Source: Archangium sp.
GTDB taxonomy: Bacteria; Myxococcota; Myxococcia; Myxococcales; Myxococcaceae
Reading direction: 5' to 3'
DNA: 20,896 nucleotides
Assembly: GCA_016792935.1 (NCBI GenBank)
Contig: JAEUJS010000455.1
Coordinates: forward strand, 1 to 20,896
In this document: piece by piece, positions 11,499 through 13,027 of the stretch
How positions within the stretch are numbered: position 1 is the first letter of the stretch
Layout: each line of letters starts with the position of its first letter
Position numbers and translations under genes: made by a program
Notes under the pieces: model-generated
Database searches by the model: none
What the model was told of the DNA's origin: nothing
Seen by the model: only the letters and a program-made list of their open reading frames with translations

Positions 11499-12065
11499 TC
11501 AGAGTTGGGCCATCCACTTCGCGAGCGAGGGCGACCGCGAAGTATCCAGCGGCTTTGGGGCGCCCTTGATCAGCTCGCACATCTTCGTGTCGTTCGAGAG
11601 GTCGTTCTCCCGGACGAGCGTCTTCGCGGCGTCCCGAGACAGCGACTCGGGGTTCTTGAGCAGCTGAGCGATGGCGATGATCCAGGCCTCGATCGCCTTT
11701 TCAGGCAGTCCGCCAATGATCTCGAGGTCCGCGCGTTCTTCTTTGAGCTGCGCGTGGGCGGCTTCGAGCAGGTTGACTCGCTCCGTACTTCCGTCCGAGT
11801 CGCGAGCCCAAAGCAACACCTCCGCGCCCGCTTCGTCTGCGAGCAGGGCGGCGCCCTGAAGCGTGCGCGTGTCGCCATGGGCTTGGCCCACGCGGTACTT
11901 GCGCACGTCCTTCCAGACGACGCCTCCGATGACGGTGCCTTCGCGGCGCGTTCGAAAGAGTTCGGCCAATACGCCGTCGGTTCTCTTTGAGAGGTTTCGA
12001 TACTCGGGCGATTCAGACCACTTGCCGATTTCGGCTGGTCCCTCGCCAGTGACGAACAGTTTCAT
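11499..12065 (-). CDS. Small TOPRIM-like protein (DUF4276-like), candidate nuclease partner of the upstream ATPase
   Basis: 188 aa. The ATG overlaps the upstream stop by 4 nt (ATGA, 12062..12065). N-terminal MKLFVTGEGPAEIG carries the conserved Glu (E8) in the 'hhhh.EG..E' context. LLWARDSDGSTE supplies a DxD (D88/D90) about 80 residues later. That is the TOPRIM Glu + DxD arrangement. Size and pairing with an AAA_21-type ATPase match my memory of DUF4276 proteins. Confidence 0.65.
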   Translation of the reverse strand: MKLFVTGEGPAEIGKWSESPEYRNLSKRTDGVLAELFRTRREGTVIGGVVWKDVRKYRVGQAHGDTRTLQGAALLADEAGAEVLLWARDSDGSTERVNLLEAAHAQLKEERADLEIIGGLPEKAIEAWIIAIAQLLKNPESLSRDAAKTLVRENDLSNDTKMCELIKGAPKPLDTSRSPSLAKWMAQL

Positions 12066-13027
12066 TTCGTCCCAGTTGCCTTGCTCTCGAAGAGTGGCGC
12101 CTCGGAGATTCCATCTGCGTAGCTCAGCCAGAGTTCGCCCAGTGCGTACACGCTCGATCGTTTGGCGAAGTTCGGAGTCGAAGCGATCGGCGTGAACTTC
12201 GTGCCTTCTGCTTCGGTGCGCGTCACGAGCGTGACTTCGTCGGGCTGCAATTCGTTGACGACGAGCGGACTGTGAGTCGCCAAGACCACCTGCGTAGTCT
12301 TCGAGATCTCTCGAAGAACCTTCATCACCACGCCGATGCGCGCTGGGTGAAGGCCGTTCTCTGGCTCCTCGATCAGCAGAAGTGACGTGGGGGCCAAGTA
12401 AGGAACGAGCGCGAACGCCAGGAAGTAGAGCATTCCTTCGGACATGTGCTCGGGACCGACTATTGGGCCGTTCCTGAGCTTGACGCCGATTCGCCGCCCT
12501 TCACTCGTCGTCGAGAGCGAGAACTCTTCGACGGTCGGGAAGAGCGCAATGAAGGACTTCTCGATCTCGAGGTAGTTCTTCTTGCTGCGCGCAAAAACCG
12601 CATCGAGAAGTGCACCGAGCCCCTGACCGCGATCATTCGCGAACTGCAACGGCTGACTGTCGGTCAGAAGTGGAAGCGGTGCGCGAAGGTGGTCGGGATC
12701 GAGGCGGAGCGTTCGGGCGCTCGCCCAGTTTTCGTGCGTCCCCTCCGGAAGACGATCAACCGCCTGGCCAGCGACAATCCACTGCCAGCCCTCACGAACT
12801 CGATAACTCATCGTGAGGTTGCCCTTCGTCGCGGCCAGGTAGTCGCTGGGCGGTTTAGTCTGCAAAGGGAAGAGGGAAGCAGCTTTGAGCGCCTCCAACG
12901 TCTTCGACTTGCCGGAATCGTTCGGGCCAATCAGCGCGTGCAGTCTCGTGAGACCGCCCAGCCGTGCGGCTCTGATTGGCCCGTGCCCTTCGGCATACAG
13001 AGAAGTGAAGTGAGGAAAGGCGCTCAT
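12062..13027 (-). CDS. Compact ABC/SMC-type ATPase (AAA_21-like), OLD/AbiL/PARIS-style
   Basis: 321 aa. Walker A LIGPNDSGKSKT. Signature-like MSEGMLYFLAFAL. Walker B/D-loop SLLLIEEPENGLHP. H-loop VVLATHSPLVVN. No transmembrane or transporter partner is present. Confidence 0.8.
   Translation of the reverse strand: MSAFPHFTSLYAEGHGPIRAARLGGLTRLHALIGPNDSGKSKTLEALKAASLFPLQTKPPSDYLAATKGNLTMSYRVREGWQWIVAGQAVDRLPEGTHENWASARTLRLDPDHLRAPLPLLTDSQPLQFANDRGQGLGALLDAVFARSKKNYLEIEKSFIALFPTVEEFSLSTTSEGRRIGVKLRNGPIVGPEHMSEGMLYFLAFALVPYLAPTSLLLIEEPENGLHPARIGVVMKVLREISKTTQVVLATHSPLVVNELQPDEVTLVTRTEAEGTKFTPIASTPNFAKRSSVYALGELWLSYADGISEAPLFESKATGTK

Follow-up and report, generated by a model that had tools for sequence, protein, structure and literature searches.

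A divergent ABC ATPase and Toprim-like gene pair, probably a conflict module, in a shared chromosomal slot of an Archangium genome

Pairs in which an ATP-binding cassette (ABC) ATPase and a Toprim protein are encoded by separate genes are among the commonest candidate defence modules. To our knowledge, PARIS is the only one of these split pairs that is understood mechanistically, and we know of almost no exploration of phage defence in myxobacteria. Here we describe a pair of this kind in a stretch of 20,896 nucleotides (nt), hereafter the window, which is a contig (JAEUJS010000455.1) of a metagenome-assembled genome (MAG) of Archangium sp. On the minus strand, an ABC-type ATPase of 321 amino acids (aa), the HEC-01A-like 'A' subunit, is encoded at 12062..13027 and was recognised from its open reading frame (ORF) and its Pfam and PADLOC matches, while a Toprim-like partner of 188 aa, the 'B' subunit, is encoded at 11499..12065 and was characterised from its ORF, a family alignment and a structural model. 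The start codon of B and the stop codon of A, as read from the sequence, overlap by 4 nt in an ATGA (12062..12065, minus strand), implying translational coupling of the two genes. In the source record, the ATPase is named 'ATP-binding protein' and the partner 'hypothetical protein'. A preliminary description, made from the letters of the window alone, had given exactly these ORFs, sizes and overlap and had proposed the pair as a candidate defence module. The evidence assembled below suggests that the locus is probably an OLD-like ABC ATPase plus Toprim nuclease conflict module, belonging to a divergent, Myxococcota-centred branch of the candidate system HEC-01.

The association of the two genes extends well beyond the window. 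Homologous loci were sought with an ATPase-alignment scan of 185,579 species genomes (one genome per species), in which 328 loci were confirmed, and the locus counts given here refer to the best 80 of these, which derive from MAGs and from Sorangium. In 75 of the 80 loci, the ATPase gene was immediately followed by that of the partner, so the pair does not consist of chance ORFs, and an in-frame [AG]TGA overlap of 4 nt was present in 59 of these 75. Four of the five loci lacking a partner call had only ~0–580 nt of contig left past the ATPase, the fifth being L033. Almost all of the best 80 loci belonged to the Myxococcota (Archangium, Myxococcaceae, Polyangiaceae, Sorangium, Kofleriaceae, Haliangiales and Nannocystaceae), and ATPase identity to the window roughly tracked taxonomy (49–64% in Archangium and Myxococcaceae, 40–48% in Polyangia). 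Two copies of the pair, with a mutual identity of 41–46%, were found in each of three MAGs.

The ATPase scored above the Pfam gathering thresholds of both AAA_21 (1.3e-23, 84.9 bits, cutoff 27) and AAA_15 (1.1e-12, 48.8 bits, cutoff 32.1), and a Pfam scan of the window placed no membrane or transporter gene beside it, in keeping with its earlier portrayal as a stand-alone ABC-type ATPase. That portrayal had also credited it with all nucleotide-binding motifs. Walker A (GPNDSGKS, residues 34–41), the ABC signature (SEG, 196–198), Walker B (LLLIEE, E220/E221, with EE instead of DE) and the H-loop (THSP, 251–254, with H252) are indeed present, together with a D-loop region (PENGLHP), while no Q-loop could be named from the sequence. 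Walker A, the signature, the IEE of residues 219–221 and the H-loop were invariant in 38 homologs; an EEPE Walker B occurred in 119 of 120 close homologs, and the same EE was found in one HEC-01A embedded in a BREX system of E. coli. Residues ~45–105, an insert after the Walker A helix, were hypervariable, with a mean majority fraction of 0.27 versus 0.80–0.89 in the motif blocks.

Among PADLOC models, the ATPase matched HEC-01A best (PDLC04175, 2.6e-27), although only its residues 129–301 were aligned, to positions 179–354 of the 363 in the model. Further matches were obtained to AriA (3.1e-23), mad3 (3.7e-18), PDC-M25A (6.5e-16) and AbiLi (4.2e-13), and also to Old and GajA, and the top NCBIfam match was MAD3 (3.6e-24, 85.7 bits versus a cutoff of 420). 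Both window proteins fall short of the known models in length (HEC-01A 363–464 positions, GajA 536–659, Old 578). More than 2,269 relatives were recovered at E<=1e-10 in a 90%-clustered protein collection, and phages returned only weak matches, of 24–32% identity, in unannotated records.

The partner belongs to a sizeable family of its own. A word-indexed homolog search returned 3 relatives only, and an exhaustive profile search returned 410 cluster representatives at E<=1e-3, 303 of them at E<=1e-10. In an alignment of 138 family members, on which both the conservation analysis and the per-member scans with profile models were based, residues E8, G9, G31, R88, D89 and W128 were invariant, and G7, G14, W51, A76, D91, R96, G118, E126 and L181 were conserved in at least 90%. 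The preliminary description had drawn attention to E8, which is thus among the invariant positions, and to a DxD at D88/D90; the motif is in fact D89/D91, one residue further on, inside R88-D89-S-D91. Together with E126, these three acidic residues are putative metal ligands. An AlphaFold2 model built from the 138-sequence alignment was of high confidence (pLDDT 96.3, pTM 0.91), and replaced a run with only 3 sequences (pLDDT 54). The model has a beta-alpha repeat core with strands at residues 2–7, 44–50, 83–87 and 115–119, followed by a helical C-terminal part, and it places the invariant E8 after strand 1 and the RDxD after strand 3. A Glu after strand 1 and a DxD after strand 3 are the defining layout of Toprim domains (PMC12065111), and the predicted structure carries both on a four-stranded alpha/beta core, so that the Toprim motif order proposed earlier is recovered in the model.

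The affinities of the partner family became visible in the per-member scans, in which matches were reported at E<=0.1 and ~14 scattered chance matches would be expected for 138 proteins. HEC-01B was matched by 45 of the 138 members (best 9e-7) and PDC-M25B by 46 (best 2.5e-6), followed by DUF4276 (12 members, all below threshold, best E 0.0048), RloB (4 members, best 3.4e-4), and mad4 and AbiLii (one member each). When ten members were inspected individually, HEC-01B or PDC-M25B was the top match in eight, and the matches to these two models were co-linear, member residues ~60–145 aligning with profile positions ~50–130, which correspond to the DxD core. TOPRIM_OLD and OLD-like_TOPRIM were not among the matches listed for the family. 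Of the domain models that the preliminary description had named, AAA_21 and AAA_15 are those matched by the ATPase; the window partner itself gave no match to RloB, nor to DUF4276 (PF14103) at E<=0.1, thus remaining short of the gathering threshold of 30.2 bits, and DUF4435, the family of AriB, was absent from the matches listed for the 138 members. The sole match of the partner as a single sequence, to VMAP-C (E 0.038), was dismissed as spurious.

Alignment of the family profile with hhalign to single HEC-01B or DUF4276 proteins was not significant, a family-profile sequence search of the PDB returned noise only, and Foldseek searches with the partner model found nothing significant in the PDB or in the viral structure library BFVD. 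The best TM-score in BFVD was to an RloB-like protein (prob 0.94, E 0.02), and the longest structural alignments were those to OLD Toprim regions. We conclude that the partner is a remote Toprim-like relative of the group formed by HEC-01B, DUF4276 and RloB, lying below every DUF4276 threshold; DUF4276 and RloB have both been placed in the Toprim superfamily (PMC12065111). The earlier identification of the small subunit as DUF4276 therefore survives only as a distant relationship, traced through HEC-01B and PDC-M25B. The structure searches are compatible with the Toprim motif layout of the predicted structure and not decisive.

The pair sits in a slot that the window shares with three other loci, L087, L089 and L098, in each of which a sigma factor gene is transcribed away from a series consisting of a small four-cysteine (4-Cys) gene, the ATPase, the partner and a gene for a major vault protein (MVP)-like protein. 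Between the window and L087, the genes around the pair are closely similar at the protein level (sigma factor 93%, 4-Cys 93%, MVP-like 96%, a 204-aa gene 84% and a 287-aa gene 91% identity), while the ATPase and the partner are only 59% and 55% identical. The boundaries of this divergent stretch are sharp: the upstream flank is 85.6% identical at the nucleotide level over 13909..13033, ending no more than 6 nt from the start codon of the ATPase, and homology at 85.5% resumes at 11500, at the partner stop codon. By Nei-Gojobori estimates, the synonymous divergence (dS) is 1.9–2.3 in the pair versus 0.35–0.64 in the flanks, a 3–6-fold difference, and the nonsynonymous divergence (dN) is 0.36–0.42 versus 0.03–0.12, so that the pair has diverged 8–13 times as far at nonsynonymous sites as genes a few bases away. 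The dN/dS of the pair is nevertheless ~0.19, indicating that both genes are functional and under purifying selection. Across the four slot-sharing alleles, the ATPases are 59–79% and the partners 53–77% identical, and these alleles resemble one another somewhat more than they do those of other slots (39–52% for the partners). It is likely that the divergence within the slot reflects either ancient allelic lineages maintained at a single site or homologous exchange of the cassette.

Base composition also sets the pair apart from its surroundings. Its GC content is 0.612 in the window versus 0.668 in the flanks, its GC at third codon positions is 0.72–0.78 versus 0.80–0.89 in the flanking genes, and its GC content falls below that of the flanks in 57 of 77 loci, with Sorangium accounting for 16 of the 20 exceptions. 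Taken together, the low GC, the duplicate divergent copies, the hypervariable insert and the divergence within the slot identify the pair as a cassette of the conflict type.

A 12-bp repeat, CTGATCAGAAGT, occurs in the window in two exact copies (0.06 expected; none of 100 shuffles contained two or more). These copies bracket the ATPase-partner cassette and mark both edges of the divergent stretch, the upstream copy (13041..13052, minus strand) spanning the final codons of the 4-Cys gene together with its stop, and the downstream copy (11483..11494, minus strand) beginning 4 nt past the partner stop codon. In L087 and L089, the upstream copy is exact and the downstream site matches at only 9 of 12 positions. 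The direct repeats may have been left by recombination or insertion, or may be coincidental. In the interval from the partner to the vault-like gene, the downstream repeat is immediately followed by a GC-rich hairpin (about 11456–11482, minus strand) with a perfect 11-bp stem and a loop of 5 nt, which has no U-tract, falls in a region with a folding z-score of only -1.8, and is not conserved in L087 or L089. Scans of the locus for sigma-70 promoters and terminators were uninformative.

In L087 (2582–3759) and L089 (2042–2626), the partner and the vault-like gene are separated by one or two additional paralogous genes of ~194 aa. Their products have a hydrophobic N-terminus, a C-terminal ...RFRW and no Pfam match, and the two L087 copies are 36% identical. 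As neither the window nor L098 has these genes, the slot varies in gene content as well.

The genes surrounding the pair in the window are an extracytoplasmic function (ECF)-type sigma factor (13250–13915, plus strand), divergent from the operon of the 4-Cys gene and the pair; after the sigma factor, a Ser/Thr kinase (14012–16057, plus strand) that carries three SAF domains and an anti-sigma-like zf-HC2 N-terminus; a second Ser/Thr kinase (18814–20817, minus strand); and the MVP-like, an AurF-like and a GH1 enzyme gene. The window contains no BREX, Hma or restriction-modification (RM) system beside the pair. A prophage or integrative-element context was ruled out, as the window has no tRNA gene, integrase, phage gene or Rfam match. 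Beyond the window, 130 genes lying no more than two positions away from the pair, at 36 loci outside Sorangium and one Sorangium locus, were scanned with Pfam and PADLOC, and these represented housekeeping families, for example acyl-CoA dehydrogenases, hydrolases, radical SAM proteins, H+-PPase, the tRNA synthetase GlyS and PFK. No third gene recurred beside the pair across loci outside Sorangium.

The two genes immediately flanking the pair were each considered as further components. The upstream 4-Cys gene, a 59-aa ORF (13039–13218, minus strand) with a CxxC followed by two single cysteines and without a Pfam match, is 72–93% identical among the four slot-sharing loci, well above the adjacent pair. 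It is a genuine small gene and part of the host flank. Its membership of the module, entertained in the preliminary description, was rejected, as it lies inside the 85%-identical flank and its homologs (63–67% identity) occur in metagenome contigs L096 and L097 without ATPase or partner. The MVP-like gene (9232–11484, minus strand, its true start probably being the ATG at 11418) encodes a bacterial homolog of the eukaryotic major vault protein, with a Pfam MVP_shoulder match of 3e-31 and weak Vault_3 and Vault_2 matches, and is located on the strand of the pair, which it follows after ~80 nt. It was likewise discarded as a conserved third component, since it adjoins the pair in the four slot-sharing loci only. 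Both the 4-Cys and the vault-like gene are host flank, which probably supplies transcription only.

More distant relatives of the ATPase, at 28–30% identity, were found on plasmids, where they form true HEC-01A and HEC-01B pairs. The ATPases match HEC-01A over their full length (1e-142 to 1e-182) and the partners match HEC-01B (1e-71 to 1e-99), two of the three partners also scoring 189–196 bits against DUF4276. One of these pairs lies between pglX and pglZ of a BREX-1 system, another between a methylase and a DEAD helicase (Hma-like) and beside an OLD-type endonuclease, and the third beside AIPR and an integrase.

Of the known systems, the split ATPase and Toprim logic proposed earlier is shared with HEC-01, AbiL and PARIS. 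HEC-01 is a PADLOC candidate whose HEC-01B has been described as a Toprim protein by structure (Payne et al., bioRxiv 10.1101/2024.01.29.577857), and like the window pair it comprises two overlapping ORFs for a separate ATPase and a small Toprim-like partner. HEC-01A is the top PADLOC match of the window ATPase, 45 of the 138 partner relatives match HEC-01B co-linearly, and the BREX-embedded HEC-01A of E. coli has the same unusual EEPE Walker B and a partner that shares a 'vEAWfLA' motif. In contrast, the window partner has no HEC-01B match at E<=0.1, the window ATPase is 40–140 aa shorter with its HEC-01A match confined to the C-terminal half, and this clade lies on chromosomes, is centred on the Myxococcota and occurs outside BREX, Hma and RM systems; a tblastn search of plasmids with the partner gave no match. 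PDC-M25, a multi-gene PADLOC candidate for phage defence of which no mention was found in the literature searched, resembles the pair in that PDC-M25A matches the ATPase and PDC-M25B is matched by 46 partner relatives, although the window partner itself lacks a PDC-M25B match. PARIS likewise combines a split AAA_15/21 ABC ATPase, whose AriA model matches the window ATPase at 3.1e-23, with a Toprim effector, but AriB is a DUF4435 Toprim and no such signal was among the matches listed for the partner family. In PARIS (Nature 2024, PMC11464382), an AriA scaffold is described as holding the AriB Toprim nuclease until a phage trigger, upon which the released AriB cuts tRNA; AriA is reported to be of 53–55 kDa and AriB of 35 kDa, so that both window proteins are much smaller, as had been remarked before.

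In AbiL, AbiLi matches the ATPase (4.2e-13), and its RloB-type AbiLii is represented by the four RloB and one AbiLii matches among the partner relatives, yet these fall far below the family thresholds and the window partner matches neither RloB (PF13707) nor AbiLii. RloB proteins that accompany type I RM systems differ in that the window pair has no RM context. In OLD and in Gabija GajA, the ATPase and Toprim domains are fused whereas here they are separate polypeptides, and no GajB-like helicase adjoins the window pair. MADS shares MAD3, the top NCBIfam match of the ATPase, and one partner relative matches mad4, whose product has been described as a DUF4276 homolog (PMC12065111); however, the MAD3 score of 85.7 bits compares with a cutoff of 420, and the window contains no methylase or other mad genes.

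We infer a defence function for the pair by analogy with these systems, and the mechanism we propose is equally conditional. By analogy with PARIS and OLD/Gabija, an oligomer of the ATPase would sequester the partner nuclease in an inactive state, and the hypervariable insert of the ATPase would sense a cue from a phage or other mobile element. ATP binding or hydrolysis would then release or activate the Toprim partner, which would act as a metal-dependent nuclease with E8, D89, D91 and probably E126 as ligands and would cut nucleic acid (tRNA or DNA), stopping the invader or the infected cell. In the HEC-01 group, protection of E. coli B against one or more of the phages T4, T5 and T7 was reported for a representative from a cold seep (bioRxiv 10.1101/2024.09.26.614923).

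Several results weigh against a Toprim-based conflict module. The original HEC-01 representative failed to protect E. coli MG1655 (bioRxiv 10.1101/2024.01.29.577857), and neither of the two phage-tested representatives belongs to the present clade. The partner alone had no match at E<=0.1 to Toprim-type models in Pfam, NCBIfam or PADLOC, and hhalign comparison of its family profile with the canonical DUF4276 alignment was not significant (probability 1.5%, E 0.033), only the N-terminal EGxxE and one C-terminal motif lining up; this test is weak because the DUF4276 alignment is narrow (60–72% identity). Part of the excess dS of the pair could stem from its weaker codon bias. Only a handful of the 130 neighbouring genes reached PADLOC models which, given the housekeeping character of the others, means that close homologs show no defence-island signal, and the enrichment in defence islands anticipated in the preliminary description was thus not borne out. 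Finally, in Sorangium the pair is syntenic in 16 species genomes with a GC content equal to that of the flanks (L014, L018, L019, L023, L026–L029, L034–L036, L039, L040, L048, L049 and L055), suggesting long vertical retention; its neighbourhood there includes an enoyl-CoA hydratase, a HEAT-repeat protein, an LPG-synthase-like protein and a glycosyltransferase.

The lack of a defence-island association would also agree with the pair being a selfish addiction cassette of the toxin-antitoxin type, conferring no anti-phage benefit, in which the Toprim protein is the toxin, the ATPase restrains it, and the cassette persists and spreads because its loss is harmful. Tight translational coupling, low-GC two-gene islets in unrelated housekeeping contexts and several divergent copies per genome would all suit such an element, and the Pfam label of AAA_21 itself reads 'putative AbiEii toxin, Type IV TA system'. 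However, the hypervariable insert and the allele-like divergence at a fixed slot are more in line with a sensor subject to diversifying pressure than with a plain antidote, BREX and Hma systems contain distant relatives of the pair, and one HEC-01 pair protected against phage. We regard a purely selfish cassette as unlikely, while noting that it accords with most of the data and that addiction and defence by abortive infection are compatible with each other. The Sorangium loci, with their synteny and flank-like GC, lend themselves to a different explanation, namely that the pair is a lineage-specific housekeeping complex for DNA or RNA processing (SbcCD-, RecF- or OLD-class-like) inherited vertically in the Myxococcota, which would also accommodate the metabolic and housekeeping neighbours, the rough agreement of ATPase similarity with taxonomy and the purifying selection on both genes (dN/dS ~0.19). 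A housekeeping role appears rather improbable, as the distribution is patchy (only 328 loci confirmed in 185,579 species genomes, the best 80 of which include no model Myxococcaceae), the ATPase insert is hypervariable, nonsynonymous divergence of the pair exceeds that of genes a few bases off by a factor of 8–13, its GC is below that of the flanks almost everywhere outside Sorangium, its contexts vary with no recurrent third gene, and some genomes hold duplicate divergent copies.

A further alternative concerns the partner alone, which might be a flavodoxin-like adaptor or a ligand-binding regulator of the ATPase and not a nuclease, its acidic residues serving in signalling by binding a metal or small molecule. 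The invariant Glu after strand 1, the RDxD after strand 3 and the conserved E126 form the defining Toprim pattern, the sub-threshold matches of the family are concentrated on HEC-01B, PDC-M25B, DUF4276, RloB, mad4 and AbiLii at far above the ~14 expected by chance, and the longest structural alignments are to OLD Toprim regions, all of which make an adaptor quite improbable. An OLD-like ATPase and Toprim nuclease conflict module on a divergent HEC-01 branch remains the probable identity of the locus. A more far-reaching and speculative proposal, which we consider unlikely as it stands, is that the Myxococcota clade constitutes a distinct, unrecognised immune family, in which a promoterless ATPase-Toprim cassette resides in fixed slots, old divergent alleles are kept or swapped by balancing selection or homologous exchange, and the insert sets the specificity of the trigger. 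On this view, the 12-bp direct repeats of the window could be left over from such an exchange, and the cassette may be transcribed on into the vault-like gene, to which it might then be functionally linked.

The pair represents a large ATPase/Toprim branch that escapes current models, comprising ~410 partner clusters at 50% identity and over 2,000 relatives of the ATPase at 90%, and whose partner is named 'hypothetical protein' by NCBI and is matched by no Pfam or PADLOC model. If the pair should prove not to be defensive, it would advise caution against annotating every ATPase and Toprim pair by architecture alone. The most interesting aspect is the presence of a hypervariable cassette inside a conserved slot, where four alleles, with flanks 84–96% identical and cassettes 53–79% identical, provide a natural experiment on the diversification of a sensor ATPase.

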